A stretch of 64,000 nt of DNA from Actinomycetota bacterium (lineage in GTDB: Bacteria > Actinomycetota > Acidimicrobiia > Acidimicrobiales > Ilumatobacteraceae). The stretch is from positions 41,816-105,815 of the forward strand of contig SXZT01000038.1 of the NCBI GenBank assembly GCA_005787785.1. The letters run 5' to 3'. The position numbers and the translations under genes are program-made. The notes under the pieces were generated by a model. That model did no database searches and was not told the DNA's origin. It saw nothing but the letters and a program-made list of their open reading frames with translations. Below, piece after piece: positions 21,676 to 55,889 of this stretch (within the stretch, counting starts at the first letter, position 1; every line of letters begins with the position of its first letter).

Positions 21676-21683
21676 GACGGCCG

Positions 21684-21693
21684 AGACTATGTT
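21684..21693. promoter_or_regulatory. back-to-back -10 boxes sharing a central TA (AGACTATGTT)
   Basis: Bottom strand TAGTCT (21689-21684) lies 8 nt before ATG 21675 (PPOX-ctaA). Top strand TATGTT (21688-21693) lies 7 nt before GTG 21701 (TetR). Confidence 0.45.
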
Positions 21694-21700
21694 CTGCTGT

Positions 21701-39329: not shown

Positions 39330-39343
39330 GCGCAGGACGCGTC

Positions 39344-40207
39344 TTGCGCATTGTCACGACGATCGCAGACGTTCGCACAGCCGTACGTGACGCGAAGTCG
39401 GCCGGTAGAGCCGTCTCATTCGTTCCCACGATGGGGGCGCTGCACGGTGGGCACGCATCTCTTCTCCATCGTGCTCGCAAAGAGGGATCGTTCGTCGTTG
39501 CATCGATCTTCGTCAACCCTCTCCAATTCAACGACCCCAACGACCTTGCCGCCTATCCGCGTACCGCTGAGGCCGATGAAGCGTTGTGCAAGAGCGCGGG
39601 AGTCGACCTGGTCTGGCGTCCCACAGCAGAGACGATCTATCCGGCGGATTTCGACACCCGCGTCGAGCCGGGCAAGTTGGCCGCGGGGCTTGAAGGTCTC
39701 CATCGTCCGGGTCATTTCGGTGGCATGGCAACTGTTGTCCTCAAATTGCTCAATGTCGTCACCCCGGACGTGGCGTTCTTCGGACTCAAGGACTTCCAAC
39801 AATTCGCGATCGTGCGACGCATGGTGCGGGACCTCGATGTGCCCGTGAAGATTGTCGGCTGCCCGACGGTACGCGAGGAAGATGGTCTCGCGATGTCCAG
39901 CCGCAACGCGAAACTTTCTCCCGAATCACGCATGCTTGCGGCACATCTGTCACGGGTCATTCATGCTGCAGCGCGGGCGATGCGATCGGGTGAGCGGGCC
40001 GATCGGGCGCGAGACCTCGCCTTCTCCGATCTTTCGTCACAGTCCGCGATAGAGATCGAGTACCTCGAGGTCGTTGACCGTGATTCTTTGCTACCCGTTG
40101 TCGACGAACCCACCGCAAATGCCGTCGTGTTGGTCGCGGCCGTCGTCGGTGGCATCCGTTTGATCGACAACGTCGAGGTTGTCCCACGAGACAAGGATTC
40201 ATCATGA
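39344..40207 (+). CDS. panC: pantoate--beta-alanine ligase
   Basis: ...VSFVPTMGALHGGH..., ...SIFVNPLQF..., ...FGLKDFQQ... TTG 39344 gives an N-terminus colinear with E. coli PanC. ORF-track TTG 39299 would overlap panB by 31 nt. Confidence 0.9.
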   Translation: MRIVTTIADVRTAVRDAKSAGRAVSFVPTMGALHGGHASLLHRARKEGSFVVASIFVNPLQFNDPNDLAAYPRTAEADEALCKSAGVDLVWRPTAETIYPADFDTRVEPGKLAAGLEGLHRPGHFGGMATVVLKLLNVVTPDVAFFGLKDFQQFAIVRRMVRDLDVPVKIVGCPTVREEDGLAMSSRNAKLSPESRMLAAHLSRVIHAAARAMRSGERADRARDLAFSDLSSQSAIEIEYLEVVDRDSLLPVVDEPTANAVVLVAAVVGGIRLIDNVEVVPRDKDSS

Positions 40208-40919: not shown

Positions 40920-42371
40920 TCAGCGGTGAAGGTCCGGGTCCGTCTGGCGAACCCGCAGCCTGATCGAGTGAACCGCATCCCCCGACAGCACCCCACCTCT
41001 TCCGAGTAGGCGTCCATTCTGCCAATTGGCGAGACCCAGTTCAGGTCGCTCGAGCGCGAATTGTCCGTCGACCCATCTGGTGAATCCATCGCCGAAGAAC
41101 GGCGACTCACTGTTCTCCCAGGCCCACACAACTTCGTCGTCATCCTCGGACACGACGGACAGAACGAAGCGAGGGCTGTGGGTGTTGAACTTCGACACTG
41201 CATCTTTCACGGATGCCGCAACGATGACGGTCACTTCGGGAACCACGTCCCACTCCCACTCTTCGCCGGGATCGACCGCTTCCGCGCGAACATCGAGCCC
41301 GACGCGTCCATTCAAGGCTGCAACCGTCGACGGGGCCGCGTGCACGACAACCGTTCCACTCCGCCGGGTGGCTACCTCAGAAAGCGCATCACCGACCAGT
41401 GAAAGGGCCGTCGATGCGTTGGGCTCGAGAACGACGACGGTGTTGAGTGTGTTGCAGACCTTTCGATCGAGTGAATGCACGATCGCGGACCGCAGGCGAG
41501 AGGGCGGAATTTGCGACCCTGCCACCAGCCATGCACCACCGGTGCCGTGCAGTGACACCGGCGTACCGCATTGCCGGGCGATCTCCCCCAGTTGATCGAC
41601 GGCTTGGCCGGAACCACGGGCAACGGCGAGCGCCAACCGCGAGTCGTGAAAGAGAGCCCAGCCCGCGGCGTGCTCGGACGAGTCGACCAGGTTGACCGCA
41701 CCGCGGGGCAAGCCAGCCGAGTCGAGTGAGGGAATCAACAGATGGTCGCGAATCGCGCGCGCCGTGCCCAAGGCATCGCTTCCGATGCGAAACACAACCG
41801 AGTTGCCGCTCTTCAGGACACCGGTTGCATCGGCGAACACGTTGGGACGACCCTCGAACACGAACGCCACGACGCCGAGCGGCGCGCGCCAGGACTCGAC
41901 GGACCAACCTTCGTGATTGATCGTGGACATGATCCCCAAACGTTCGAACGCGAGACTCGCCCACATGCGCAGACCCGCTGCCATGTCGGTGCGCATCTTC
42001 GTGGTTATCTCCAGTCGGCCGCTCGGTCGGCCCCGCCGCCGAGCCGATTCGACATCGACTGCATTCGCGGCGAGCACGTGCGCGAACGCATGGTCGTCCT
42101 CGATGAGTTCCGCGAAACGCATGAAAAAGTCGTCGACGCGACTACTTGCCGTTCCCTGCAGCGCTGCAAAGCCTTCGACGGCGTCCGCGACCGCGGCATC
42201 AACCACGCGGCGAATCTCCGCCGGCACGACGAGGACGGTTCCCGTTGAACGAAGGGGGATCAGCCGTCCGCCCACTTGAAGCGTGCGGAGCATCTCGCCC
42301 GATAGTTCAACGAGGCGATCGCCCACCAGTATTCGATCACCCGAGCCCGGGCCCGCCGTGTCACCGTTCAT
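40920..42371 (-). CDS. divergent glutamate-5-semialdehyde dehydrogenase (ProA)-like aldehyde dehydrogenase
   Basis: Colinear with ProA (...APLGVVAFVFEGRPNVFADATGVLKSGNSVVFR..., ...RKVCNTLNTVVV...), but several canonical ProA motifs are altered and there is a roughly 45-aa N-terminal extension. ATG 42371 is chosen because the rest of ORF 40920..43286 is antisense to the MBL gene. Confidence 0.7.
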   Translation of the reverse strand: MNGDTAGPGSGDRILVGDRLVELSGEMLRTLQVGGRLIPLRSTGTVLVVPAEIRRVVDAAVADAVEGFAALQGTASSRVDDFFMRFAELIEDDHAFAHVLAANAVDVESARRRGRPSGRLEITTKMRTDMAAGLRMWASLAFERLGIMSTINHEGWSVESWRAPLGVVAFVFEGRPNVFADATGVLKSGNSVVFRIGSDALGTARAIRDHLLIPSLDSAGLPRGAVNLVDSSEHAAGWALFHDSRLALAVARGSGQAVDQLGEIARQCGTPVSLHGTGGAWLVAGSQIPPSRLRSAIVHSLDRKVCNTLNTVVVLEPNASTALSLVGDALSEVATRRSGTVVVHAAPSTVAALNGRVGLDVRAEAVDPGEEWEWDVVPEVTVIVAASVKDAVSKFNTHSPRFVLSVVSEDDDEVVWAWENSESPFFGDGFTRWVDGQFALERPELGLANWQNGRLLGRGGVLSGDAVHSIRLRVRQTDPDLHR

Positions 42372-42404
42372 CAGGTACGTCAGGGTACGCCATAACCTGT
42401 CCTC

Positions 42405-43127
42405 ATGATCGTCGATGACAGGTTCTATTTCCGTCAGCTGCTGTCGGGCAGGGACTTCGCGGTACGCAACGGTCTCGCGGCGCAGATGGTGAATTACGTG
42501 TACCTGCTGGGCGACCGTGCGACCCGTGAATGCGTCATCGTCGATCCCGCGTATGCCGTCGACGAGCTGCTTGCTGTGATCGAAGCCGACGGAATGACGC
42601 TCACGGGTGTCCTCGCCACGCACTACCACCCCGACCACATCGGCGGCTCGATGATGGGTCACCGGATCGACGGGATAGCTCATCTGCTCGAGACACACAA
42701 CGTGCCGATCCATGTCAACGAGGCCGAAGTCCCATGGGTCATTCGAACGACCGAGGTGGACAAGTCCCATCTCGTCGCCCATTCTGCCGGTGACACTCTC
42801 ACGATCGGCGAGGTCGACATCACATTCGTTCACACCCCGGGTCACACCCCCGGCAGTCAGTGTTTCCTCGCCTGTGGCTGTCTCATCTCCGGGGACACAC
42901 TGTTTCTCGACGGATGTGGACGCACGGACCTGCCGGGTTCCGACGCCGAGCAGATGTACGAGAGTCTCCAGACGTTGGCGCGGCTCCCCGACCAGACGAC
43001 GGTTTTTCCCGGACACCAATATTCCGCACCGCCCAGCGCGCCGATGTCGATGGTCCGCACGTCGAATTACGTGTTCAGAACACGCGACAAGGAGGCCTGG
43101 ATGGAGTGGTTCGGTCCCGGACGCTGA
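42405..43127 (+). CDS. MBL-fold metallo-hydrolase (glyoxalase II-like)
   Basis: THYHPDHIGG metal-binding motif, ...HTPGHTPGS..., ...GDTLF..GCGR.D... TAACCT box 6 nt upstream of the ATG. Confidence 0.85.
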   Translation: MIVDDRFYFRQLLSGRDFAVRNGLAAQMVNYVYLLGDRATRECVIVDPAYAVDELLAVIEADGMTLTGVLATHYHPDHIGGSMMGHRIDGIAHLLETHNVPIHVNEAEVPWVIRTTEVDKSHLVAHSAGDTLTIGEVDITFVHTPGHTPGSQCFLACGCLISGDTLFLDGCGRTDLPGSDAEQMYESLQTLARLPDQTTVFPGHQYSAPPSAPMSMVRTSNYVFRTRDKEAWMEWFGPGR

Positions 43128-43131
43128 ACTT

Positions 43132-43875
43132 CTACAACAGTCCTGACACGATCGAACTAATCGCGGTTGCCGCCAAGAGCGCAGCCACGATTCTCCAGAA
43201 CACGTCGGGCGACACCAAACCCCGCAGTCGGGCGCCCATGTACATGCCCATTCCGAGCCCGGGTACGGCCACGAGCATGCTGACAAGCGCTTCCCCGGTC
43301 AGTTTCCCCCCGATCGCATACATCGCGATGCTGACGAACGAAACGATACTGAAGACCGTGTTGATGGTCGCTCGAAAAACCTCGGGCGACAATCCCCGTG
43401 ATCGCAGCAGCAGCACGAGAGGCGGACCGTTGGTGGACGTCGATGTTGCGAGCACCCCTGACACGAATCCGGCCAGTCCTTCGAGTGTCTTTCCACCGAC
43501 TGGCGTGGCGACGTCCGATCTGACGACCGCCACCAACGCCACGAGAACGAAACCCCCGATGCCGACCCGCAACACGTCGGTGTCGACACGGTCCAAGATC
43601 ACCAGACCCAATGGCATGCCGAGAAACGAGGCGACCGTCAGGAGCCTCACGAGCCTCGCGTCGCGGTGGTGTCCGTCATTGATTGCTTGGTAAGTGTTCG
43701 AGGCAGTCCCGCAGATCGTGGACACCACGACGGCGGTTTTCAAATCGATGGCGAGACCCATCAACGGAACCGCCATCAGGGCAAAGCCAAAACCCGACAC
43801 CATCTGGGCACAGGCGGCGGCTGTCACGATCAGAGCTAGCAGCACAAGGTCGCCCGCACCCAGGAAACCGATCAT
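43132..43875 (-). CDS. sulfite exporter TauE/SafE family membrane protein
   Basis: 247 aa with about 8 hydrophobic helices and the internally duplicated TauE-type layout. Lies 24 nt downstream of the aminotransferase gene. Confidence 0.75.
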   Translation of the reverse strand: MIGFLGAGDLVLLALIVTAAACAQMVSGFGFALMAVPLMGLAIDLKTAVVVSTICGTASNTYQAINDGHHRDARLVRLLTVASFLGMPLGLVILDRVDTDVLRVGIGGFVLVALVAVVRSDVATPVGGKTLEGLAGFVSGVLATSTSTNGPPLVLLLRSRGLSPEVFRATINTVFSIVSFVSIAMYAIGGKLTGEALVSMLVAVPGLGMGMYMGARLRGLVSPDVFWRIVAALLAATAISSIVSGLL

Positions 43876-43899
43876 CGGACACTCAAAACCATCGACGCG

Positions 43900-45252
43900 T
43901 CAGGAGACCGTCAGCGCGTGGACGGCCTCTGCGAAGACCGCGGTGTGCCGCTCGACCTGATCCTTGGTGTGCGCAGGCGAAAAGAGCGCCATGTTGTGAA
44001 AGGGAGTCATGAGAATTCCCCTGTTGATTGCAAAGAGGTGCATGAATGCATCCAGTTCGTGGTCGACTGCCGCGGCCGCCTGCGCGCCGGTCCTCGGCGG
44101 TGGGCAGAACCAGTACTCAGCCCGGCAGCCGAGACGCTGTACGTGCCACGCCAAACCTACCGATTCGTAGCCACTGCGAACACCGTCGGTCCACATCTCT
44201 GCAAGGGGAATCATTCGCTCGAAGTCCTGCGCCCTGAGGGTCGATGACAGCGTCGCGCGAATCGCGGACAGCGAAAGCGCGTTGCCAGTGAGAGTGCCAC
44301 CGATCCCCGATACGTCGACGTCGTCCCCGCCGAGTGCATTCTCCAGCCGCAACGCAACATCAGACGACATACCGTACGCACCCGCGGGCATGCCGCCCCC
44401 GATGGGTTTGCCGATAACGAAGAAATCCGGCTCGAGGCCCCATTCGACAGTGCACCCACCCGGGCCCGCGCAGATCGTATGGGTCTCGTCGATGACGAGC
44501 AGTGTGCCCGCCTCGCGTGTCACCCGACGAACGTCGTCGAGATAGCCGGGTTCGGGCAGCACGATTCCAATGTTCGTGAGGGCGGGCTCCATCAAGACGC
44601 ACGCGACGTCACCATGCGCCAGGGCGCGCTCGAGAGCACGAATGTCGTTGAACGGAACCACCCGTGTCGTGAGATTTGGGTCGACTTGCGGACCGATTGC
44701 GCCCGGTCGACTGACGACACCACCAAGGCTCGAGAGAATCGCGAGCGTTTCGTCGACAGTTCCGTGATAGCACCAATCCATCACGCAGATTTTCGGTCTC
44801 TTTGTGAGCATCCGCGAAAGACGCAGAACGAAGCGATTGGCATCGGTGGCTGAAAGCGCCATTTGCCACTTCGGCAGACCGAATCGTCGGGCGAGTTCGT
44901 CGGCAACCCATGTTGCATCGAGCGACGGGAGCATCGTCGTGATGCCGCGCTTGGCTTGGGCGTGGAGAGCGTCCGCGACGGCGGACAGACCGTGACCCGT
45001 CATGGCGCCGGTGTCGCCGAGACAGAAATCGTCGTACTCGATGCCGTCCACGTCGACGAAGCGGCTTCCCTCGGCAGCCGCCACCGTCAGAGGAAACGAC
45101 CCCGGCCAGCGCGTCATCCACGGCATGGGCACACCCGACAGCAGACTGCGCGACGCTTCCCGCGCCAATTCGCGGGACCTGGGGTGCGATTCGTCGTATC
45201 GCGCCAGTTCCGCGACATGGAGCACCGCGAGACGACTGCGGTCTATTTGCAT
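43900..45252 (-). CDS. class-III (GSA-aminomutase-like) pyridoxal-phosphate aminotransferase
   Basis: ...LMEPALTNIG...LLVIDETHT...FVIGKPIGGG (PLP-Lys region). 450 aa. TAGTTT box 6 nt upstream of the ATG. Confidence 0.85.
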   Translation of the reverse strand: MQIDRSRLAVLHVAELARYDESHPRSRELAREASRSLLSGVPMPWMTRWPGSFPLTVAAAEGSRFVDVDGIEYDDFCLGDTGAMTGHGLSAVADALHAQAKRGITTMLPSLDATWVADELARRFGLPKWQMALSATDANRFVLRLSRMLTKRPKICVMDWCYHGTVDETLAILSSLGGVVSRPGAIGPQVDPNLTTRVVPFNDIRALERALAHGDVACVLMEPALTNIGIVLPEPGYLDDVRRVTREAGTLLVIDETHTICAGPGGCTVEWGLEPDFFVIGKPIGGGMPAGAYGMSSDVALRLENALGGDDVDVSGIGGTLTGNALSLSAIRATLSSTLRAQDFERMIPLAEMWTDGVRSGYESVGLAWHVQRLGCRAEYWFCPPPRTGAQAAAAVDHELDAFMHLFAINRGILMTPFHNMALFSPAHTKDQVERHTAVFAEAVHALTVS

Positions 45253-45331
45253 GGAGCCAAACTAGTCACCGTCAGATTGGGGTCACCATTACCCGGGTCG
45301 TCCAGTCCGTAATCTTGGTCAGAGACTCTCC

Positions 45332-46588
45332 ATGACTTCAATCAACTCGCCTTCGCTTGGTTCGACGCACATCAACGGCAACCGCTTGCTCCAGCGCCTC
45401 GACGCACTCGCCGAGATCGGCTCGACGGGAGACGGGGGTTGCTGCCGCGTCGCCCTCACCGATGAAGACAAAGCCGGCCGTGATCTCGTCGTGTCGTGGA
45501 TGCACGAACTTGACCTCGACGTGGTGGTCGACGCGATCGGCAATGTGTTCGGCACGTGGAACGTCGGCGTCGGCGCCCCGGTTATGACCGGTTCGCACAT
45601 CGACACGGTGCGCACCGGAGGAAAGTTTGACGGTAATTACGGTGTTCTTGCAGGACTCGAGGTCATCGAGACGTGCAAGGAACTTTCCATCACCCCCGAT
45701 CGTCCGTTGTGCGTCGCGATTTTCACCGACGAAGAAGGAGCACGTTTTGCTCCCGACATGCTCGGCAGTCTCGTGTACGTCGGCGGCCTCGCGCTCGAAG
45801 AGGCGCTCGACATCGAGTCGATCGACGGAAAACGTCTCGGCGACGAACTCGTCCGAATCGGATACGCCGGCGCCGCCCCGTGCCCCGGACCTGCACCCCA
45901 TGCGTTCGTCGAATTGCACATCGAGCAGGGTCCTGTACTTGAGGCGGAGGACCGAGCGTTCGGAGCCGTCACCGGCGTGCAGGGTATTTCATGGCAGGAA
46001 CTGACCATCGTCGGCCAGAGCAACCATGCGGGAACCACACCCATGAATCTCCGTCGAGATCCCGCATTCGTTGCGGCGATGATGACGGTTTATCTGCGGG
46101 ACATAGCCGAGCGTTTCGGTGGCGACCAGGTGTGCACAGTCGGCAAGGTCGACCTGCACCCGAATCTGATCAACGTTATTCCTGCCCGCGCGACGATCAC
46201 CCTCGACGTTCGCAACACCGACGAGGACACGCTGCGCGATGCCGAGCATCTCATCGACACTTTCTGTTTCCAGATCGAGCAGGACGAAGGTGTCTCCATC
46301 ACGAAGCGCCAGTTGGCGCGATTCGAACCCGTCACGTTCGACGAGCGTGTGATCGCACTGGTCGAGCGCCGTGCGCGGGAGGTCGATACCCGAGTAAAGC
46401 GCCTGCCGTCAGGCGCGGGCCACGATGCGCAAATGCTTGCCCGCTTTTGTCCCAGCGCAATGATCTTCGTCCCCAGCAAGGACGGCATCAGCCACAATGC
46501 CCGCGAACACACCGAACCCGACCAACTCGTCGATGGGGCAAACGTCCTGCTTCGCGTCATGCTCGATCTCACGGAAATGGAATTCTGA
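45332..46588 (+). CDS. M20-family amidohydrolase (allantoate amidohydrolase / N-carbamoyl-L-amino-acid hydrolase / beta-ureidopropionase group)
   Basis: ...LAEIGSTGDGGCCRVALTDEDKAGRDLVVSWM..., ...GSHIDTVRTGGKFDG..., ...FTDEEG..., ...SGAGHDA... are typical of the AmaB/AllC family. Confidence 0.85.
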   Translation: MTSINSPSLGSTHINGNRLLQRLDALAEIGSTGDGGCCRVALTDEDKAGRDLVVSWMHELDLDVVVDAIGNVFGTWNVGVGAPVMTGSHIDTVRTGGKFDGNYGVLAGLEVIETCKELSITPDRPLCVAIFTDEEGARFAPDMLGSLVYVGGLALEEALDIESIDGKRLGDELVRIGYAGAAPCPGPAPHAFVELHIEQGPVLEAEDRAFGAVTGVQGISWQELTIVGQSNHAGTTPMNLRRDPAFVAAMMTVYLRDIAERFGGDQVCTVGKVDLHPNLINVIPARATITLDVRNTDEDTLRDAEHLIDTFCFQIEQDEGVSITKRQLARFEPVTFDERVIALVERRAREVDTRVKRLPSGAGHDAQMLARFCPSAMIFVPSKDGISHNAREHTEPDQLVDGANVLLRVMLDLTEMEF

Positions 46589-46589
46589 A

Positions 46590-47516
46590 ATGTCCCGAAT
46601 CGTCACAGTCGGCGCCGCCCAAATGGGACCGATCCAAAAGGAGCACGCTCGCGCGGAGGCAGTCGCTCGACTTGTCGCCCTGCTCGAACAGGGTTCGCGC
46701 AACGACTGTGACCTCGTGGTGTTTCCCGAACTTGCGCTCACCACATTTTTTCCGCGTTGGTTCGTCGACGACATCTCACAAGCCGACCGCTGGTACGAGC
46801 GTGAGATGCCTTCGCGGGAGACGCAACCGCTGTTTGACGCAGCCAAGAAAATGAAGATCGGCTTCTCCCTCGGTTACGCAGAATTGACCGACGACGGCCA
46901 CCGCTTCAACACGCAGATTCTCGTCGAGCGCGACGGTTCCATCGTCGGGCGCTATCACAAGGTCCACATCCCGGGCCATGAGCACCATGAACCCGACCGC
47001 CCCTTTCAGCATGCGGAGAGGTATTACTTCGAGCCCGGCCCCGAGGGCTTCGGCGTCTGGAAGGCGTTCGGAGGCCGCGTGGGAATGATGATCTGCAACG
47101 ACCGGCGGTGGCCCGAGTCATACCGCGTCATGGGCCTGAAGGGTGTCGAGATCATTCTCTGTGGGTACAACACGCCGATCCATTACGTTCCCGACCCAAG
47201 CCAGGACATCCTGCAGGGCTTCCACAATTCCCTCGTGATGCAGGCCGGGGCGTACCAAAACGGATCTTGGGTCGTGGGCGTGGCCAAGGGTGGCATCGAA
47301 GAGGGCGTCGACTCCCTCGGCCAGTCGGCCATCATCGCGCCATCGGGGCAGATCGTCGCCCAGGCGTACACCACCGGCGACGAGTTGATCGTGGCACGCT
47401 GCGACCTCGATTGGTGCGCCAAGTACAAGGGCACCCTCTTCGACTTCGACCGCTACCGGCGTCCCGAGGTCTACGGTCCCATCACCGCCCAGCGGGGAGT
47501 CGTCCTCGAGGACTGA
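46590..47516 (+). CDS. N-carbamoyl-D-amino-acid hydrolase-type carbon-nitrogen hydrolase (nitrilase superfamily)
   Basis: Near-colinear with the Agrobacterium D-carbamoylase as I recall it: VVFPELALTTFFPRW (Glu), YHKVHIPG (Lys), MMICNDRRWPE (Cys). ATG lies 1 nt after the upstream stop. Confidence 0.88.
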   Translation: MSRIVTVGAAQMGPIQKEHARAEAVARLVALLEQGSRNDCDLVVFPELALTTFFPRWFVDDISQADRWYEREMPSRETQPLFDAAKKMKIGFSLGYAELTDDGHRFNTQILVERDGSIVGRYHKVHIPGHEHHEPDRPFQHAERYYFEPGPEGFGVWKAFGGRVGMMICNDRRWPESYRVMGLKGVEIILCGYNTPIHYVPDPSQDILQGFHNSLVMQAGAYQNGSWVVGVAKGGIEEGVDSLGQSAIIAPSGQIVAQAYTTGDELIVARCDLDWCAKYKGTLFDFDRYRRPEVYGPITAQRGVVLED

Positions 47517-47537
47517 CGCCGTCTTGCTTTGACAAAA

Positions 47538-47545
47538 TGTAAAAT
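47538..47545 (+). promoter_or_regulatory. candidate internal -10 element (TGTAAAAT) in an AT-rich island
   Basis: TAAAAT (47540-47545) fits TANNNT and sits in the locally AT-rich string CTTTGACAAAATGTAAAATG. A start about 7 nt downstream would fall inside the 5' arm of the hairpin. Confidence 0.3.
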
Positions 47546-47546
47546 G

Positions 47547-47584
47547 CCTCCAGGGTGGCCCTTTCGCGGGGCCTCCCCTGGAGG
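47547..47584 (+). promoter_or_regulatory. stem-loop pairing an anti-SD (CCTCC) with the Shine-Dalgarno (GGAGG) of the Mo-hydroxylase operon
   Basis: CCTCCAGGG-T-GGCCC (47547-47561) pairs with GGGCC-TC-CCCTGGAGG (47569-47584). That is 14 Watson-Crick pairs (12 G-C) and a 7-nt loop. GGAGG 47580-47584 lies 12 nt before ATG 47597. There is no U-tract after it, so it is not a classical terminator. Confidence 0.5.
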
Positions 47585-47596
47585 TGGGCACAAAAG

Positions 47597-50203
47597 ATGG
47601 CGAACAACTTGACGAGCGACACGGTCGCCTTCTCGGTCAACGGCACGCCCGTCATGGTCAGCGCCCGTCATCCCCATTTGCTCAGCGCGCTGCGTGACGA
47701 ACTCGACATCACGTCCCCGAAGGACGGCTGCTCACCCTCGGGCCAATGCGGTTGCTGCACGGTCCTCGTCGATGGCAAGGCCGTCGTCAGTTGCCAACAA
47801 CCATTGACGAAAATCTCCGGAGCAGAGATCACGACGCTCGAGGGCTTTGCAGTCGACGAACGCAAGAGGTTCGCCTCGGCTTTTGCGGCGTGCGGCGGTC
47901 TTCAATGCGGTTTTTGCATTCCCGGAATCGTGGTACGCGCAAAAGCCCAAATCGACAAAAAGGGTGCGGCGCTGAAATCCACTGACATGGCGCGTCATCT
48001 CGGAGCACATCTGTGTCGATGCACCGGATACGTAAAAATTCTCGAAGCCATCGACGCGGTCGCCAAAAACAACATTCCCGTTCGGCAGCAGTGCGGAGGA
48101 ATCGGCAGTCGGGGAACCAAGTACGAAGCAGACGAGCTTGCTCTCGGGGATCGTGGCTACGTCGACGACATTCGGTTACCCGGCATGCTGCATGCGGCGT
48201 TGCATCTGACCAATCATGCGCGGGCTGACATCGTCACGATCGACACCTCTGCGGCCGCAGCCCACCCCGGGGTCGTCGCCGTCCACACCGCGGACGACAT
48301 CCCCGGTGAACTTCGAGTAGGGATCATTCACAAGGACTGGCCGGTCATGATCCCCGTGGGTGGACGCACGTCGTATGCGGGCGACGTGCTCGCGATCGTC
48401 GTGGCGAACGACCGCATCGCTGCCCGTGAGGCCGCAGAATTGGTGCAGGTCACCTACAAACCCCTCCGACCGATCACGGACGCCGCCGCGGCGATCAACG
48501 ACAGCGAAGTCGCGGTGTGGGGCACCGACGACAACGTTTTGTCCACGAGCTCCTACTCACGCGGAGATGTGGATGCCGCAATTGCCAATTCGACCCACGT
48601 CGTCACCGAAACCTTCAAGACGCAACGGATCGAGCATGCGTTCCTCGAACCCGAGTCCACGCTCGCAGTGCCCTCGGTGCGCAATGGTCGCCGACACCTT
48701 CACGTGTACTCGGGTGGCCAAGGTATTTGGGACGATCGCAACGACATCGCTCGCGTTCTCGGCGTCGACAACGAGTCAATTACCGTCGAACTGGTGACGA
48801 ACGGAGGTGCGTTCGGGGGCAAGGAAGACATGAGCAACCAGGCTCATGCGGCCCTTGCAGCATGGCTCCTCGACAAACCGGTCAAATGCACGCTGTCGCG
48901 CGAAGAGAGTCTGCGAATCCACGCCAAGCGACACCCCATCACCATGACCTACGAGGCAGCCTGCGATACCGAAGGCCGGCTCTCGGCGTTGCGCGTGCGC
49001 GCAATCGGAGACAGCGGCGCTTACGCAAGCGTCGGGATGAAGGTCCTCGAGCGCATGGCCGGCCATGCAAGCGGGCCCTACGAGGTTCCGAACATCGACG
49101 TGCAAGCGGTTGCCGCCCGCACCAACAACCCCGTGTGCGGTGCTTTCCGCGGCTTCGGTGCGAACCAGGCACAGTTCGCCATGGAAGGGGTCCTCGATCG
49201 TCTCGCCGAACGAGTCGGCATCACCGGGTGGGAAATTCGCAAGCGCAACGTGATCAAACCAGGCCGCGTATGGGGCCCCGGTCAGATCATGGACGACGGT
49301 TGCCTCGGTGCCGAGATCTGTCTGGATGCGGTGAAGGACGCCTACGACGCCGCTCACGCCGCCGGCAAGGCGGTCGGTGTCGGACTCGGACTGAAGAACT
49401 CCGGCCTTGGCAACGGTTTCAAGGAAGTAACCCGTGCCGTGGTGCGCTTCAACAGCAGCGGCGACATTGAAGTTCGTCATGGATGGACAGAGATGGGTCA
49501 GGGCATCAATACCGTCGCCCTCCAGGTGGCGGTCGAGGAACTCGGGGTCGACCCAGGACGTGTTCGTGTCATTGTCGACACGACGCGCGAGCTCGGACTC
49601 GGCCAGACGACCGGCTCGCGCGGAACCTTGATGGGGGCCGGCGCCGTTCGCGCGGCATGCCTCACCGCCCGCGCGGAGGACTGTGCCCCCGACGTCGACC
49701 ACATGGGCGAATATCGCGTGGACTGGACGACCAAGCTCGGCGAGCCGGGCGTGGAGAACCCGACCATTCACTCGACGTTCGGATACGCAGCGCAACTTGT
49801 GATCGCTGACCGCGAGACGGGAAAGATCGAACGTGTTCTTGCTGCTCACGACGTTGGGCGTGCGGTCAATCCGACGCTGTGCGAGGGTCAAATCGAAGGC
49901 AGCGTCCACATGGGGCTCGGCTACGCGCTGACCGAAGACTTCCCTTCCGACCCGCAGACCGGGTTTCCCACCAACATGACTCTGCGCTCTCTCGGAATCC
50001 TGCGCGCGAAGGACGTGCCCGTCATCGACGTGATCCTCGTCGAGTCCCCGCAACCGAATTCGCCGTACGGCATCAAGGGTGTCGGCGAAATCGGACTCGT
50101 TCCCACCGCCGGTGCCGTCGCAGCCGCACTCCACGAAGTCGACGGCCAGTGGCGCAACCAACTCCCGATGCGTGCCGCCTCCGACGCGGGAGACGCCGAC
50201 TGA
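47597..50203 (+). CDS. fused [2Fe-2S]x2 + molybdopterin hydroxylase, no FAD domain (MOP/XdhD-like xanthine dehydrogenase family)
   Basis: The N-terminus carries both 2Fe-2S motifs (CSPSGQCGCCTV; CGFCIPG...CRCTGY). Mo-binding domains follow (GGAFGGKED, TNNPVCGAFRGFG, IKGVGEIG catalytic Glu). ATG 47597 is preceded by GGAGGTGGG. Confidence 0.88.
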   Translation: MANNLTSDTVAFSVNGTPVMVSARHPHLLSALRDELDITSPKDGCSPSGQCGCCTVLVDGKAVVSCQQPLTKISGAEITTLEGFAVDERKRFASAFAACGGLQCGFCIPGIVVRAKAQIDKKGAALKSTDMARHLGAHLCRCTGYVKILEAIDAVAKNNIPVRQQCGGIGSRGTKYEADELALGDRGYVDDIRLPGMLHAALHLTNHARADIVTIDTSAAAAHPGVVAVHTADDIPGELRVGIIHKDWPVMIPVGGRTSYAGDVLAIVVANDRIAAREAAELVQVTYKPLRPITDAAAAINDSEVAVWGTDDNVLSTSSYSRGDVDAAIANSTHVVTETFKTQRIEHAFLEPESTLAVPSVRNGRRHLHVYSGGQGIWDDRNDIARVLGVDNESITVELVTNGGAFGGKEDMSNQAHAALAAWLLDKPVKCTLSREESLRIHAKRHPITMTYEAACDTEGRLSALRVRAIGDSGAYASVGMKVLERMAGHASGPYEVPNIDVQAVAARTNNPVCGAFRGFGANQAQFAMEGVLDRLAERVGITGWEIRKRNVIKPGRVWGPGQIMDDGCLGAEICLDAVKDAYDAAHAAGKAVGVGLGLKNSGLGNGFKEVTRAVVRFNSSGDIEVRHGWTEMGQGINTVALQVAVEELGVDPGRVRVIVDTTRELGLGQTTGSRGTLMGAGAVRAACLTARAEDCAPDVDHMGEYRVDWTTKLGEPGVENPTIHSTFGYAAQLVIADRETGKIERVLAAHDVGRAVNPTLCEGQIEGSVHMGLGYALTEDFPSDPQTGFPTNMTLRSLGILRAKDVPVIDVILVESPQPNSPYGIKGVGEIGLVPTAGAVAAALHEVDGQWRNQLPMRAASDAGDAD

Positions 50204-51270
50204 TGGGCAACACCACGGGTGGGCTCGTCTGTGCACACCATCACCTCTACAGCGCGCTTGCGCGTGGCATGCCGGCCCCTCCCGAGGCGCCTTGCGACTT
50301 TCTGTCCGTGCTACGGCAGGTGTGGTGGCGACTCGATGCTGCGCTCGACCTCGACATCATCTACTGGTCCGCGGCATTGGGCGCCGCTGAAGCAGTGCTC
50401 GCAGGAACGACGACAATCATCGACCACCACGAGTCCCCCTCGTGCATCGAAGGTTCGCTCGACGCCATCGCGGCAGGATGCGCACTTGTTGGGGTTCGCG
50501 TCATTCCAAGTTACGGCGTGACGGATCGATGGTCGAACGACGGTCGCCTCGTCGACGTCTCACCACGGGACGCAATGTCCGAAGGAGCCCGTCGTGGTCT
50601 CGACGAGTGCGAGCGCTACATCAACTCGGGGCGGCCCGCGATGGTCGGCATTCATGCTTCATTCACGTGCTCCGATGAGACCATCGCCGCAGCGGCTGAC
50701 CTCGCGGAGCGAACGGGCGTGGGCGTCCACGTGCATGTTGCCGAGGGACCCGACGACAACAGTGCTCCCGGCCGTCTCGGCCGACTTGCGCGCGACAACT
50801 GGCTTCTCGTGCACTGTGTCGGTCTACGAGACCGGCTCCCCGGGACGATCGTTCACAATCCCCGCTCCAACATGAACAACTCCGTTGGCTACGCGCGGCC
50901 CGCCCGGTTCCCCAACAATGTCGTCCTCGGCACCGACGGGATCGGGGCCGACATGGCCGAAGAGTTCCGCCTGGCTTACGTTGCCGGTCGCAGCGACGAC
51001 ATCGGCTTCTCACCCGAGACCGCCTGGGCTTGGCTCACCAACGGCTGGGTGTTGGCACCACAATCGCGCGACGACTTAGTCGTATGGAACTACGACCACA
51101 TGGACAGTCCGTGGCACCTGGCTTTCAGCACGGGCACGCGGCCCCTCGAAGTCTCCATCGACGGCAAGCCAGTCGTGAAAGAAGCGCGACCGGTTTCGTT
51201 CGATCTCGAAGAGATTCGATGCAAGGCCGCCGAACAGGCAGACCGTCTCCACGAAAGGCTTGCCGCATGA
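50203..51270 (+). CDS. ssnA: SsnA-type amidohydrolase (metal-dependent hydrolase superfamily), N-terminally short
   Basis: ...[15 protein letters not shown]...[13 protein letters not shown]...IIDHHESP...[13 protein letters not shown]...[13 protein letters not shown]... is colinear with E. coli SsnA from about its residue 60 onward. ATG overlaps the upstream TGA (TGATG). Confidence 0.8.
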
Positions 51271-52283
51271 CCGAGAAGAAAATTGCGCAAGTCGCTCTCT
51301 ATCTTCAGGATGCGCACCGCATCCGCGAGGGAATGGAGTTCGTCAAGTACGCCGAGCAGAAAGGCTTCGATGCGGTGTGGCAAGCCGAAAGTCGTCTCGT
51401 CCGCGAAGCGACGGTTCCGATGGCGGCTTTCGCGTCCGTGACCGACCGCATCAAGGTCGGCAGCGGTGTCGTTGACTGTTGGAGCCGCAATCCGGCGCGC
51501 CTGGCTGCCACGTTTTCGACCCTCGACGACCTTGCACCGGGGCGCGTCATCCTGGGTATCGGTGCATGGTGGGATCCGCTTGCCCAGAAAGTCGGAATCA
51601 CGAGAGCCAAGCCGTTGCGCGCGATGCGCGAGATCGTCACTGCTGTGCGCGGCTTGCTCGCCAACGAGACGGTCACTTTTCACGGGGAATTCGTTCATCT
51701 CGATGGGGTCGAACTCGATTACGTCTACCAGGAGCGACGACCGAAGGAGGTGCCCATCTACATCGGGGCGACGGGCCTCCAGATGATGGAACTTACCGGC
51801 GAAATCGCCGACGGTGCGGTCCTCAACTACCTGGTGTCCCCCGACTACAACCAGCAGGCGATCGAGGCACTCGAACGTGGTGCGGCGAAGGCCGGACGGT
51901 CTATCGATGACATCGACCGACCGCAGCTCGTCGTGTGCAGCGTGCACGAGGACCGCAAGACCGCCCTCGACATGGCGCGGCTCATGGTCACCCAATACCT
52001 CGGGCAGCAACCGCACATCATGAAAGCATCAGGCGTTCCGCAGAGTCTTCTCGACAGGGTCGGCGAAGTTCTTACATGGCCGGCCACGCACGAACAGGTG
52101 GTCGCAGCGTCGAAACTGGTTCCGGACGAGATCGTGCAGATGTTGACGGCCAGTGGAACGCCCGAGGATGCCAGACGACAGGTTGCTCATTACATGCGCA
52201 ACGGCTGCACGTGCCCCATTCTGTATCCGCTCGGCGACGTCAAGGCGATGATCGATGCCTTCAGCGGTTGGAGTCCCGAATGA
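51267..52283 (+). CDS. luciferase-like monooxygenase (LLM) family oxidoreductase, probably F420-dependent
   Basis: ...[16 protein letters not shown]...KVGSGVV...RNPA..A....[18 protein letters not shown]... is typical of LLM-class F420-dependent enzymes. ATGA overlaps on both sides. Confidence 0.8.
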
Positions 52284-53122
52284 GCGTGCACATGCCGACC
52301 ACCGTCGACGAGGCCGTCGCCCTCCTTGCCGACAATCCCGGAGCACGCCTGCTGTCGGGTGGGACCGACACGATGGTCGAAGTCAACTTCAACCATCTCA
52401 AGCCCGAAACCGTCATCGGACTCCGCCGTGTCGAATCCCTCCGGGATTACCGGGTCTCTTCCGAGCGCATCGAGATAGGGGCCGGCGTCCCCTATTCCCG
52501 TATGGAGACCGGGCCGCTCGCAGATGCCCTGCCGGCGCTCGCGGCTGCCGCCCGAACGGTTGGTTCACCGCAGATCCGGGCTGCGGGCACACTCGGCGGC
52601 AACCTCGGCACCTGTTCACCGGCAGGGGATGGCCTTCCCGTACTTGCCGCCCTCGACGCCGACGTGAATCTCAGGTCGCCGCGCGGACTTCGCTCCGTTC
52701 CCTTCGCAGAGTTCATGGTCGGCGTGAAGAGAAACTCACGTCTCGCCGACGAGATCATCGAATCGGTGTCGATAGTACCGACCCGGGGATATCAGGATTA
52801 CGCAAAAGTGGGCGTACGCAACGCGATGGTCATTTCCGTCGCGAGCGTCTGTTTCGTGCATGACCGCAACACGGCGTCGGTTCGCATCGCTCTTGGTGCC
52901 GTGGGCCCCACCATCATTCGCGCGCGCGAAGCCGAATCGTGGCTCACCGGACAGGTCGATGCCGCGGCGACACTACCGAACGACGAAAACATCGCGTCTG
53001 AGTTCGCACGCCGAGTGGCAGCCGAAGCACGCCCGATCGACGATCATCGATCCACCTCGGCGTACCGCCGCCATGCAATCCAGACCCTTGCGCGCCGCCT
53101 CTACATCCGGAGCACGAAATGA
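52280..53122 (+). CDS. FAD-binding subunit of a molybdenum hydroxylase (CoxM/XdhB/YgfM type)
   Basis: ...[11 protein letters not shown]... and ...[16 protein letters not shown]... FAD_binding_5 motifs. C-terminal CO-dehydrogenase flavoprotein domain (...RSTSAYRRH...). Confidence 0.85.
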
Positions 53123-53610
53123 ACGACACGACAGGCTTCTACGAACTCGTGGTCAACGGCAAGAAACGTGAGGTTCGCGACTCATGGGTCGGCGAGAGTC
53201 TTCTGTACGTCCTGCGCGAACGTCTCGGGCTGATGGGCAGCAAAGGGGCCTGCGAGCAAGGTGAGTGCGGGAGTTGCACGGTTCTCCTCGACGGCGATGC
53301 CGTCTGCTCGTGCCTCGTTCTCGCCGCAACGGCCACCGACAGCGAAGTCGTCACCGTCGAGGGTCTCGCTGCCGACGGAGCACCAACCGATGTGCAGAAG
53401 GCATTCGTCGAGCATGGTGCGGTGCAGTGCGGTTTTTGCACGCCGGGCCTGATCGTCGCAGTGCACCACCTCCTCGACCGCAACCCCGACCCGTCCGCAA
53501 TCGAAGTGAAGGAAGCACTCTCGGGCAACATCTGTCGTTGCACCGGATACGGCCGCATCTTTGCGGCCGTCGAAACAGTCGTCGCAATTCGCAAGGGAGC
53601 CGGCAAGTGA
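53119..53610 (+). CDS. (2Fe-2S)-binding small subunit of molybdenum hydroxylase
   Basis: CEQGECGSCTV, CGFCTPG and CRCTGY cluster motifs. 163 aa. Confidence 0.92.
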   Translation: MNDTTGFYELVVNGKKREVRDSWVGESLLYVLRERLGLMGSKGACEQGECGSCTVLLDGDAVCSCLVLAATATDSEVVTVEGLAADGAPTDVQKAFVEHGAVQCGFCTPGLIVAVHHLLDRNPDPSAIEVKEALSGNICRCTGYGRIFAAVETVVAIRKGAGK

Positions 53611-55889
53611 AGAACACCCCCTCCTCGACACGCACGAGGAATCGTGGCGTTCTCGGTACGTCGGCCCTGCGTCCTGACGGGGTGGCGAAGACGCAGGGAA
53701 ATTTCGCGTTCTCGTCTGACTTCCAGGCCGAAAACATGCTCTGGGGAGCAACGTTGCGTTCGCCCCATCCCCATGCACGGATCGTGTCGATCGATCCGTC
53801 CGAAGCATGGAAGATCTCCGGAGTCGAGGCGATCATCTTTGCCGACGACGTGCCGGGAAAAGCGACCTACGGACTCATTGCTTCCGACCAACCCGTCTTT
53901 GCGCGCGACGTGGTGCGCTACATGGGTGAGCCGATCGCGGCCGTGGCGGCCGACCATCCCGAGACCTGCCGCCGCGCCATCGCTGCGATCAAGGTCGTGT
54001 ACGAGGGGCTTCCGGTGCTCTCCGATATGGACGCCGCCATCGATCCGGCGACCCCGGCGATTCATCCCGACGGCAACGTCTTTCGTCACCAACGAATCGT
54101 CTCGGGCAACCCGGATGTCATGGGCGACGTCGTCGTCGAGGGAACCTACGACATCGGCATGCAGGACCAGGCGTTTCTCGGTCTCGAAGCCGCACTCGCC
54201 TATCCCGATCCGGGCGGAGCGGGAGTCGAGCTGGTCGTGGCAACACAGTGGCTTCACGAGGACCGCAAACAGATCGCCGACTGTCTCGACCTTGCACCCG
54301 AGAAGGTTCGACTTGTTCTCGGCGGCGTCGGCGGAGCCTTCGGCGCACGCGAGGACATCTCCCTGCAGGTCCACACTTGTCTCCTCGCATTGCGCACCGG
54401 ACGCCCGGTGAAGGTCCAGTACGGCCGCGAGGAAAGTTTCTTTGGGCACGTCCACAGACACCCCGGACGCATCCATCTCCGCCACCATGCGGACCGCGCC
54501 GGAAAGTTGGTCAAGGTCGAGGGTTGGATGAAACTCGATGGTGGCGCCTACGCCTCGACCTCGTCAGCGGTGCTCATCAACGGAATCACCCACCTTCAGG
54601 GACCGTACGCCTGCGACAACTCGCGCCTCGATGCATGGGCGACACGCACGAACAATCCACCGTGCGGAGCAATGCGGGGCTTCGGCGTGGTGCAGGCCTG
54701 CTTCGCACACGAAGGACAGATGGACAAACTCGCTGCGGCTCTGGGCCTGTCACCCGTCGAAATACGACTTCGCAACGCGATGAAAACGGGTGACAAGCTC
54801 TTCACCGGGCAGGTCGTCGACAGCGTCGCCCCCGTTGCACGCTGCATTCGTGAAACCGATGCAATTCCCCTGCCAGCCGACGCGCAGTACGGCACGGGTT
54901 CGCTCGAATTACCCGGTGGTTCGGGTCGCACCTCCGACCCCTCCCACATCCGTCGAGGGATCGGCTGGGGTGTCTCGATCAAGAACCTGATGTACTCCGA
55001 AGGTTTCGACGATTCGGCCGAAGCCCGCTGCACGCTCGTCGATGGGGTCGCGACGCTCAAATTTGCCACGGCAGAGGTGGGGCAGGGTTTCGTTGTCCTT
55101 GCACAACAAATCGCCCGCACGGTCCTCGGTGTCGACACCGTCGTTCTCGACACGATCGACACTCAAATCGGATCCGCGGGATCGACCTCGGCCTCCCGAC
55201 AAACGTGGATGAGCGGCGGCGCAGTGGACGGCGCATGCCGCCTGGTGCGAGAGAGGCTGTTTGAACACGTGGCCCACCTCCACAACCTCGATCCACTTCA
55301 GCTCGTCATCGAGGGAACAGAAATCGTCGACACGCTCGGTCCGCTGCGCATGCCGGTCGCAGAAGCAAGCAAAGGGCTCCGCATCGAGCAGACCTTTCTG
55401 CACCGTCATCGGCCAACCGAGGAACTCGACGAAAACGGCCAGGGGAACTGCCACGTCGCGTTCGCATTCGTCGCGCACCGTGCCGTGGTCGATGTCGACA
55501 CCGAACTGGGACTGGTCAAGGTCGTGCAAATTGCAACGGCACAAGACGTCGGTCAGGTGTTGAACCCGCTCGCGCTGCTGGGTCAAATCGAAGGCGGTAT
55601 TGCGCAGGGTCTCGGGCTCGCGGTGATGGAGGAAATAGTTGTCGATCGCGGAGTCGTCAGAAATCCGAGTTTCACCGACTATCTCCTGCCGACGACCCTC
55701 GACGCGCCGGACGTCGTTGCGATTCCCATCGAAGAGTACGAACCCCTCGCTCCTCTCGGTGCAAAAGGCGTGGGTGAGCCACCGTGTATTTCGGTCACGC
55801 CTGCGATCGTTGCGGCAATCCGCAACGCGACCGGACGCGACATCGTGCGTACACCGGTGCGACCCCAGGACATCTGTCTCCCGTCCTGA
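53607..55889 (+). CDS. molybdopterin-binding large subunit, xanthine dehydrogenase/aldehyde oxidase type
   Basis: GTG 53607 overlaps the upstream stop (GTGA). GGAFGARED, TNNPPCGAMRGFG and GAKGVGEPP (catalytic Glu) motifs. Lacks the CO-dehydrogenase AYRCSFR-type active-site loop. Confidence 0.9.
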   Translation: MKNTPSSTRTRNRGVLGTSALRPDGVAKTQGNFAFSSDFQAENMLWGATLRSPHPHARIVSIDPSEAWKISGVEAIIFADDVPGKATYGLIASDQPVFARDVVRYMGEPIAAVAADHPETCRRAIAAIKVVYEGLPVLSDMDAAIDPATPAIHPDGNVFRHQRIVSGNPDVMGDVVVEGTYDIGMQDQAFLGLEAALAYPDPGGAGVELVVATQWLHEDRKQIADCLDLAPEKVRLVLGGVGGAFGAREDISLQVHTCLLALRTGRPVKVQYGREESFFGHVHRHPGRIHLRHHADRAGKLVKVEGWMKLDGGAYASTSSAVLINGITHLQGPYACDNSRLDAWATRTNNPPCGAMRGFGVVQACFAHEGQMDKLAAALGLSPVEIRLRNAMKTGDKLFTGQVVDSVAPVARCIRETDAIPLPADAQYGTGSLELPGGSGRTSDPSHIRRGIGWGVSIKNLMYSEGFDDSAEARCTLVDGVATLKFATAEVGQGFVVLAQQIARTVLGVDTVVLDTIDTQIGSAGSTSASRQTWMSGGAVDGACRLVRERLFEHVAHLHNLDPLQLVIEGTEIVDTLGPLRMPVAEASKGLRIEQTFLHRHRPTEELDENGQGNCHVAFAFVAHRAVVDVDTELGLVKVVQIATAQDVGQVLNPLALLGQIEGGIAQGLGLAVMEEIVVDRGVVRNPSFTDYLLPTTLDAPDVVAIPIEEYEPLAPLGAKGVGEPPCISVTPAIVAAIRNATGRDIVRTPVRPQDICLPS

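Follow-up and report, generated by a model that had tools for sequence, protein, structure and literature searches.

What does the gene cluster at positions 43132-55889 of the DNA stretch analysed here degrade, and how new is its route? The stretch, called the window below, comprises 64,000 nucleotides (nt; 64 kb) of contig SXZT01000038.1 from an Ilumatobacteraceae bacterium (Actinomycetota, Acidimicrobiia). An earlier reading of the bare sequence (the original prediction) had seen in it an undescribed operon for the catabolism of an N-heterocycle, with two molybdenum (Mo) hydroxylases, an SsnA-type amidohydrolase, an oxidoreductase of the luciferase-like monooxygenase (LLM) family, two carbamoylases and an aminotransferase. 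We conclude that the cluster is probably a purine-catabolic variant of the reductive urate or 2,8-dioxopurine pathway in an aerobic, Ilumatobacteraceae-like freshwater member of the Acidimicrobiia. This reading is carried mainly by related genomes, in which genes of the established pathway and genes of the window replace each other.

Gene content was called anew across the whole window, and domains were assigned by a Pfam profile search. All ten predicted genes were recovered at their positions and each domain call was backed by Pfam; reading of the sequence confirmed the gene junctions, and the source contig, analysed with an independent gene caller, yielded the same product lengths for the six downstream genes (868, 355, 338, 280, 163 and 760 amino acids, aa). 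The features of the cluster are:

43132-43875, minus strand: TauE/TSUP-family permease (Pfam TauE, E 2e-27), 24 nt 3' of the aminotransferase gene
43900-45252, minus strand: class-III aminotransferase (Pfam Aminotran_3), divergent from the M20 gene
45332-46588, plus strand: M20 amidase (Pfam Peptidase_M20)
46590-47516, plus strand: D-carbamoylase (Pfam CN_hydrolase), 1 nt past the M20 stop
47529-47543, palindromic, no strand assigned: predicted operator TTGACAAAATGTAAA, a match to TTKACA-N3-TGTAAA
47546-47585, plus strand: G+C-rich hairpin, from the fold of the spacer
47597-50203, plus strand: fused iron-sulphur (FeS) and Mo enzyme without FAD domain (Pfam Fer2_2, Ald_Xan_dh_C, MoCoBD_1/2)
50203-51270, plus strand: SsnA-type amidohydrolase (Pfam Amidohydro_1)
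51267-52283, plus strand: LLM oxidoreductase (Pfam Bac_luciferase)
52280-53122, plus strand: FAD subunit of xanthine dehydrogenase (XDH; Pfam FAD_binding_5 and CO_deh_flav_C)
53119-53610, plus strand: [2Fe-2S] subunit of XDH (Pfam Fer2 and Fer2_2)
53607-55889, plus strand: Mo subunit of XDH, PucD type (Pfam Ald_Xan_dh_C and MoCoBD_1/2)

The junctions read, in order, TGAAATG (a 1-nt gap), TGATG, three times ATGA, and GTGA; the six downstream genes, from the fused enzyme to the Mo subunit, overlap start to stop throughout. The aminotransferase gene had been called leaderless: no obvious Shine-Dalgarno sequence is visible, but the leaderless status itself was not borne out. The G+C content is about 62 % and uniform across the region, thus no sign of a recent insertion was observed.

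The base pathway was solved biochemically in 2025 in Escherichia coli and Clostridium (10.1101/2025.05.19.654654; 10.1101/2025.04.24.650524). XDH makes urate and feeds the route with it in Clostridium sporogenes; urate is converted to 2,8-dioxopurine by XdhD in E. coli, together with the FAD subunit YgfM, or by the fused XdhAC in C. sporogenes, and YgfK or UacX dearomatises the 2,8-dioxopurine. Ring opening by SsnA leads to ureidomethyl-hydantoin and 5-ureido-dihydrouracil, HyuA opens the second ring, YgeW or UacY cleave the 2-ureido group and YgeY the 3-ureido group, and YgeX converts 2,3-diaminopropionate to pyruvate (10.1101/2025.05.19.654654; 10.1101/2025.04.24.650524). Li et al. (2025) also reported Chloroflexota clusters in which a putative F420-dependent isoxanthine reductase of the luciferase family replaces YgfK beside SsnA (10.1101/2025.05.19.654654). 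Both the base pathway and, as a prediction for another phylum, the exchange of YgfK for an F420-dependent LLM are already known, and the term undescribed holds for the actinobacterial version only. To call the E. coli locus linked to urate was an understatement in view of the biochemistry. The kinship with the E. coli ygfK-ssnA-ygfM-xdhD region, with an F420-type LLM where YgfK would be, was upheld, two non-homologous decarbamoylases and a transaminase are present, and the proposed order of steps (Mo enzymes, ring reduction, SsnA-type opening, decarbamoylation, transamination) agrees with the pathway as published. The substrate had been left as a purine-, pyrimidine- or hydantoin-like ring; it appears to narrow to purines, i.e., xanthine and urate via 2,8-dioxopurine, and does not extend to pyrimidines and hydantoins in general.

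Conserved gene order and exchanged enzymes in related genomes

A scan of species-representative genomes revealed at least 590 places that encode a relative. Among the best 80, nearly all were labelled Acidimicrobiia or Actinomycetota, mostly freshwater or marine metagenome-assembled genomes of Ilumatobacteraceae, while a few bore evidently wrong or other labels, e.g., Bifidobacterium or Chloroflexi; the closest relative among these 80 was 80 % identical. The proteins of the window and of E. coli K-12 were mapped onto 82 non-redundant related Acidimicrobiia loci (designated by L numbers), to which all locus counts refer. The full order of a metallo-beta-lactamase (MBL) fold gene, TauE and aminotransferase on the minus strand, M20, D-carbamoylase, fused Mo enzyme, SsnA-like, LLM, FAD, FeS and Mo subunit was present in at least 13 species-level loci, with SsnA-like identities of 55-80 %. 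This neighbourhood analysis, set beforehand as a test able to refute the original prediction, came out in favour of a co-conserved cluster.

Directly 3' of the SsnA-like gene lies the LLM gene in 47 of the 82 loci, the FAD subunit gene in 11 and a YgfK gene in three. In total, LLM was present in 57 loci and YgfK in five, both together in none. YgfK directly follows the SsnA-like gene in L056, L067 and L077 and lies about 1.2 kb or less downstream in L076 and L084; all five loci contain the fused enzyme. The aminotransferase (16 loci) and a YgeX homologue (three loci: L058, L073, L084) were likewise never found together. Further genes of the established route are an ornithine carbamoyltransferase (OTCase)-type carbamoyltransferase and a carbamate kinase, both added in L067, and a HyuA-like hydantoinase in L080. 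In L084 (7555-12318), a PnrA/Bmp-type ABC transporter with two permeases, binding protein and ATPase is located directly 3' of the YgfK-like gene and likely serves purine or nucleoside uptake. The mutual exclusion of LLM and YgfK suggests that the LLM is a functional stand-in for YgfK, and that of aminotransferase and YgeX suggests the same for the aminotransferase. Alternatives that exclude each other in the same positions are the strongest evidence for a function of the SsnA-like family in the 2,8-dioxopurine pathway.

YqeB and YqeC, accessory genes of selenium-Mo-hydroxylases, were not found in the window, nor was SelD; among the 82 loci YqeB and YqeC occurred only in the marine L063 and L066. 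In these two loci a second set of genes on the minus strand, at about 14-21 kb, adjoins the LLM-type cluster, so that two versions of the module stand side by side: YqeC, YqeB, a more divergent SsnA homologue 27-28 % and an XdhD-like enzyme 38 % identical to the E. coli counterparts. Genes inserted in variant loci were considered as a source of a hydantoinase or regulator; by translation and BLAST against E. coli proteins most appeared to be unrelated, the exceptions being the YgeX, YgfK, OTCase-type transferase, carbamate kinase and HyuA-like genes and an AraC-like open reading frame (ORF) in L059.

Predicted operator and regulation

The absence of a regulator gene from the cluster, as originally stated, was confirmed; a conserved palindrome points to regulation in trans. 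The copy in the window, TTGACAAAATGTAAA, lies at 47529-47543, 54 nt 5' of the start codon of the fused enzyme, and is the sole site in the 64 kb, where 0.03 would be expected by chance. The related loci (1.16 Mb) contain about 38 distinct exact sites of the form TT[TGA]ACA-N3-TGTAAA, for a chance estimate of about 0.05. They are spread across L003-L081, and all but one are located 2-96 nt 5' of a called cluster gene; the exceptional site, in L024, is 17 nt 5' of a fragmented FeS/Mo ORF. The gene behind the operator varies with the start of the local unit (fused enzyme, M20, D-carbamoylase, FAD subunit, LLM or SsnA-like), and the site is kept in front of cluster units even where these are separated by insertions or relocated. 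A clade with a minimal operon, discussed below, has the variant TTTACATTTCGTACA directly 5' of the M20 gene. The shared operator suggests a single regulon of XDH and the module of fused enzyme, SsnA-like protein and LLM, which in other lineages also includes the carbamoylases. Judged from these sites, the transcription units are predicted to be under the control of a trans-encoded regulator that binds TTKACA-N3-TGTAAA.

The 80-nt spacer in which the operator lies had been described as structured. The fold of 47517-47600 indeed contains a strong hairpin (-40.6 kcal/mol, z = -4.1), but its sequence is not conserved in relatives. No T-run follows on the plus strand, hence the hairpin is not a classical terminator. 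A riboswitch or other known RNA was discarded as an explanation, since no Rfam family reached its gathering threshold and the matches at E <= 10 were noise.

The M20/D-carbamoylase pair of the window and the divergent aminotransferase gene share another intergenic region, which has no operator site. This gap, together with the position of the aminotransferase and TauE genes on the opposite strand, could be taken as a sign that an ordinary XDH operon has come to lie by chance beside unrelated genes for carbamoyl-amino-acid and aminotransferase functions. Such a fortuitous adjacency is very improbable. Many species maintain the order, with 55-80 % identity between the proteins; start and stop codons overlap throughout the six downstream genes; and other lineages have the operator 5' of M20, D-carbamoylase, fused-enzyme, SsnA-like, LLM and FAD-subunit genes.

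The enzymes and the proposed route

In the 2,8-dioxopurine reading, the first step would be the oxidation of hypoxanthine and xanthine to urate by the three-subunit enzyme encoded at the end of the cluster. Its Mo subunit scored 809 bits with the equivalog model TIGR03196 (pucD), above the cut-off of 783.65, and its translation shows the E/R/E purine motifs. The FAD subunit (best NCBIfam match XdhB, 31 % identity to E. coli XdhB) and the [2Fe-2S] subunit (best match XdhC, 46 % identity to E. coli XdhC) stayed under the equivalog cut-offs. Based on these matches the trio is assigned to the conventional PucD-type XDH. YgfM as orthologue of the FAD subunit was ruled out by BLAST against the E. 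coli K-12 proteins, which gave a weak and partial match only.

The fused enzyme reached 833 bits with the NCBIfam model TIGR03311, for a cut-off of 830.45, and just 155 bits with TIGR03313, which we take to be the family of E. coli XdhD; its identity to XdhD in a BLAST search against the E. coli K-12 proteins was 24 %. The equivalents of the purine-type Glu232 and Arg310 and of the catalytic Glu are all retained, and both Mo enzymes of the window carry the Glu/Arg/Glu residues of purine hydroxylases. In the 868-aa protein the Mo domain begins at about residue 310. XdhAC of C. sporogenes, with Mo domains at residues 307-839, shows the same FeS-Mo fusion and the same domain position. The gene lies directly 5' of the SsnA-like gene in half of the loci (41 of 82). 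We infer that the enzyme is a 2,8-dioxopurine dehydrogenase, interconverting urate and 2,8-dioxopurine, and that it would act in the second step by taking the 6-oxo group off urate to yield 2,8-dioxopurine (isoxanthine). One of the two predicted hydroxylases would thus probably act in the dehydroxylating sense. Since the hydroxylation at C8 and the subsequent loss of the C6 oxygen are redox-neutral in sum, the two Mo enzymes could exchange electrons via a shared carrier.

Homology mapping with the E. coli K-12 proteins found no YgfK homologue in the window; the LLM holds its position. The top NCBIfam matches of the LLM are all F420-dependent classes, the best being Mer (179 bits, cut-off 276), and every match in the PDB is an F420 enzyme. 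The protein probably uses F420, and in the third step would reduce, i.e., dearomatise, 2,8-dioxopurine with F420H2 as a replacement of the Fe-S flavoprotein YgfK or of UacX. Across the lineage the LLM identity is 84-100 %, and the homologues among the matches listed are at least 87 % identical. The LLM was 84-95 % identical where the adjoining SsnA-like protein reached only 57-80 %, which suggests that the reductase is far more tightly constrained than its neighbours. Genes for F420 biosynthesis were not found in the window, and the F420 review yielded nothing on F420 in Acidimicrobiia. The sole other hint of F420 use in the window is a PNPOx/PPOX-class protein at 21241-21675 (minus strand) with a weak match to F420-dependent PPOX families, divergent from a TetR regulator at 21674-22309 (plus strand).

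For the SsnA-like protein the best NCBIfam matches were the SsnA models with 221 and 214 bits, the next family following at 92 bits. It can be aligned with E. coli SsnA from residue 57 to residue 440 (33 % identity) and lacks the first approximately 56 residues of the canonical enzyme. The short form of 353-355 aa (355 aa in the window) is found in thousands of metagenome proteins. Metal site and SsnA-typical motifs are intact; common to both proteins are HxHxYSxLxRG, WWRLDxALD, IDHHxSP, VHNxRSNMNNxVGY and LGTDGIGxDM. An AlphaFold2 model (pLDDT 89) had the cog0402 deaminases as nearest folds, in keeping with an enzyme that hydrolyses a cyclic amidine. An assignment as deaminase of guanine or 8-oxoguanine was rejected, as BLAST gave no match to GuaD and the 8-oxoguanine deaminase model scored 92 against 221 bits. 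In the fourth step the protein would open the ring of the reduced 2,8-dioxopurine hydrolytically, giving ureidomethyl-hydantoin or 5-ureido-dihydrouracil.

The fifth step would be the opening of the second ring. In a tblastn search with E. coli HyuA, just L080 among the 82 loci and no sequence of the window was matched. In several distant loci a further amidohydrolase (Amidohydro_1, approximately 380 aa, about 25 % identity to GuaD) adjoins the module: its gene follows that of the LLM in L063 (12151-13278), L066, L079 and L025 and precedes the SsnA-like gene in L073 (8750-9904). Without a counterpart in the window, this protein may act as a guanine deaminase or be a candidate for the ring-opening step that is missing.

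No homologues of YgeW/YqeA, UacY, YgeY and YgeX were obtained from the window by BLAST and homology mapping; analogous enzymes are present instead. The CN-hydrolase is similar over its full length (residues 1-304) to characterised N-carbamoyl-D-amino-acid hydrolases (PDB 8i99/6lcg, E 7e-117; 1fo6, E 3e-99). It was encoded in 54 loci, including all those with the M20 gene. The M20 protein scored 387 bits with TIGR01879, above the cut-off of 204; its relatives in the PDB are N-carbamoyl-beta-alanine amidohydrolase, L-carbamoylase and beta-alanine synthase, placing it in the hydantoinase/carbamoylase group (AmaB, beta-ureidopropionase, L-carbamoylase). An orthology to YgeY was dismissed because E. 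coli YgeY gave no BLAST match. The SsnA/FAD/Mo/M20 core that the cluster was said to keep from E. coli is therefore only partly orthologous, with a FAD subunit closer to XdhB than to YgfM, an M20 protein without match to YgeY and a fused enzyme distant from XdhD. As sixth step, the D-carbamoylase would cleave the 2-ureido group, a role that fits the D-specificity of HyuA and UacY in the known pathway, and the AmaB-type M20 enzyme the 3-ureido group, yielding 2,3-diaminopropionate. In a seventh step the class-III aminotransferase, in place of the lyase YgeX, may dispose of the diaminopropionate. It scored 636 bits with the NCBIfam transaminase model NF005453 (cut-off 425), and its closest structure is 5ykr, followed by glutamate-1-semialdehyde (GSA) aminomutases.

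The same chemical logic could serve another N-heterocycle: a pyrimidine, degraded oxidatively via barbiturate or reductively to beta-alanine in a Pyd-like manner, a pterin, or a methylated or otherwise substituted purine. This would suit an SsnA-like protein outside the cut-offs of the SsnA models, an M20 enzyme nearest to beta-ureidopropionases, a CN-hydrolase nearest to D-carbamoylases of hydantoin- and pyrimidine-type routes, and an aminotransferase family that includes beta-amino-acid transaminases. Also panB and panC of pantothenate synthesis, which consume beta-alanine, are located 3-5 kb upstream (38508-40207, plus strand), a few kb 5' of the carbamoylase genes, and likewise in L001 and L003. 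However, the panBC adjacency is limited to one lineage and has no operator site, and is probably lineage synteny. The Glu/Arg/Glu set in both Mo enzymes, of which one scores above the PucD cut-off, speaks for purines. In sister loci the SsnA-like family is paired with YgfK, YgeX, OTCase-type transferase, carbamate kinase and a purine-type ABC transporter. As signature genes of 2,8-dioxopurine degradation, they argue against another heterocycle, which we consider unlikely.

Several observations weigh against the 2,8-dioxopurine route. The scores of the SsnA-like protein, 221 and 214 bits, compare with cut-offs of 444 and 455, and its N-terminal segment is missing; no NCBIfam cut-off is reached by the LLM; the fused enzyme exceeds that of TIGR03311 by only 3 bits and has 24 % identity to the characterised E. 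coli XdhD, and its electron donor, in the absence of a FAD domain, is not evident. Pfam detected no hydantoinase or dihydropyrimidinase among the other called genes of the window, and with a hydantoinase in one of the 82 loci and none in the window, one ring-opening step is without a candidate. We know of no citable precedent for a transaminase in the disposal of diaminopropionate. Finally, the clade with the minimal operon (L001/L002, L007, L009, L012, L014, L018-L020, L032, L054), which is monophyletic and comprises at least ten species, has only the M20, D-carbamoylase, SsnA-like, FAD, FeS and Mo genes and no fused enzyme, LLM or YgfK within 10 kb.

This clade, with exactly the minimal operon behind its own operator variant, might point to a core of XDH, SsnA-like protein and two carbamoylases that works without a reductive step, e.g., with direct hydrolysis of an XDH product by the amidohydrolase in a xanthinase-like manner; fused enzyme and LLM would be accessory and widen the substrate range. 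The two do usually co-occur: both are present in 43 loci, the fused enzyme alone in eight and the LLM alone in 14. But cluster genes are often dispersed, with the SsnA-like gene alone in L057 and L065 and the LLM gene several kb off in L017, L036, L049 and L052; local absence is thus not absence from the genome, and the genes missing from the minimal clade may lie elsewhere. Moreover, E. coli SsnA was inactive on 2,8-dioxopurine when the reductase was left out, and a reductase is located directly 3' of the SsnA-like gene in 50 of the 82 loci (47 LLM, 3 YgfK). A route without reduction appears improbable to us. Within the preferred reading, that of a 2,8-dioxopurine pathway, a more specific scheme is tentative and rather doubtful: XDH and the fused enzyme would together convert xanthine to 2,8-dioxopurine in a redox-neutral manner, followed by a new Mer-like LLM reductase, a truncated SsnA opening the ring without a hydantoinase and a GSA-aminomutase-like transaminase, all under a new TTKACA-N3-TGTAAA regulon.

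Neighbouring genes, significance and known systems

The flanks of the window contain housekeeping genes and genes for a P450, a Rieske oxygenase and an ALO-type FAD oxidase, consistent with an aerobic host. Besides TauE, the cluster has no dedicated transporter, and the membership of TauE in the pathway is uncertain. An MBL-fold hydrolase resembling glyoxalase II and persulfide dioxygenase (42405-43127, plus strand) converges on the TauE gene, 4 nt apart. In Ilumatobacteraceae-type loci TauE is always paired with this gene, whether the aminotransferase is present or not, and from more distant clusters it is absent; the two may be an independent sulfite-related pair outside the purine route. 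As pathway transporter TauE was rejected, because the TauE-like gene within the L081 cluster is not homologous to that of the window. Relatives, too, keep a ProA-like aldehyde dehydrogenase gene 5' of the cluster. The ORF in the window (40920-42833, minus strand) is greatly extended at the N-terminus and thereby overlaps the MBL gene on the opposite strand; translation probably starts near 42370, which would agree with L004 (483 aa).

In 2025, the reductive urate pathway was described as a defining trait of anaerobic, mostly gut bacteria, with a requirement for selenium and oxygen-sensitive Fe-S flavoproteins. If the 2,8-dioxopurine reading of the cluster is true, the same chemistry would be widespread in aerobic planktonic Actinobacteria of the acIV/Ilumatobacteraceae group, would rely there on a different set of parts that probably tolerate oxygen (F420-type reductase, hydrolytic carbamoylases, transaminase), and would add a route for the recycling of purine nitrogen in lakes and oceans. 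It would also provide four candidate non-orthologous replacements, simpler enzymes for engineered urate-degrading strains, and a physiological role for one more F420-dependent LLM family. The operator offers a way to trace the regulator and the steps that are still missing.

New in comparison with published work are the actinobacterial lineage, the apparent aerobic setting, a truncated SsnA family outside that of the published survey, the substitutions by D-carbamoylase, AmaB-type M20 enzyme and aminotransferase, the missing hydantoinase, and the operator. In the Chloroflexota SsnA clusters (Li et al., Fig. 3c and Discussion; predicted only) a PF00296 LLM replaces YgfK/UacX as in the window. 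That prediction covers IPR017700, the TIGR03314 SsnA family, in a phylum other than that of the window, and with 214 bits for a cut-off of 455 the SsnA-like protein would fall outside it. The FAD/FeS/Mo trio is of the same kind as PucABCDE of Bacillus subtilis and XdhABC of E. coli, with a Mo subunit that matches PucD, but a PucA/XdhC maturation gene, uricase and allantoin genes are not nearby. The CN-hydrolase is closely related to the solved D-carbamoylases known from the gene pairs of the 'hydantoinase process', in which a D-hydantoinase accompanies the D-carbamoylase; in the window it has no hydantoinase partner and sits inside a purine cluster.

The closest known systems are the E. coli locus ygeW-ygeX-ygeY-hyuA-yqeA ... 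ygfK-ssnA-ygfM-xdhD and the clusters of C. sporogenes and C. difficile. In contrast to these, the window has an LLM, probably F420-dependent, instead of YgfK or UacX as predicted reductase, a nitrilase-superfamily D-carbamoylase for the 2-ureido group instead of YgeW with YqeA or UacY, an M20 enzyme of AmaB instead of YgeY type, a class-III aminotransferase in the place of the YgeX lyase and an SsnA-like protein shortened at the N-terminus relative to E. coli SsnA; HyuA, YqeB/YqeC and a sigma-54 regulator are absent, and the host is an aerobic planktonic actinobacterium and not a gut anaerobe. In common with all of these, the window has an SsnA-like gene that adjoins those of a Mo enzyme and a probable reductase, an accompanying XDH that would feed in urate, two putative ureido-cleaving enzymes and a putative enzyme for the C3 diamine end product.

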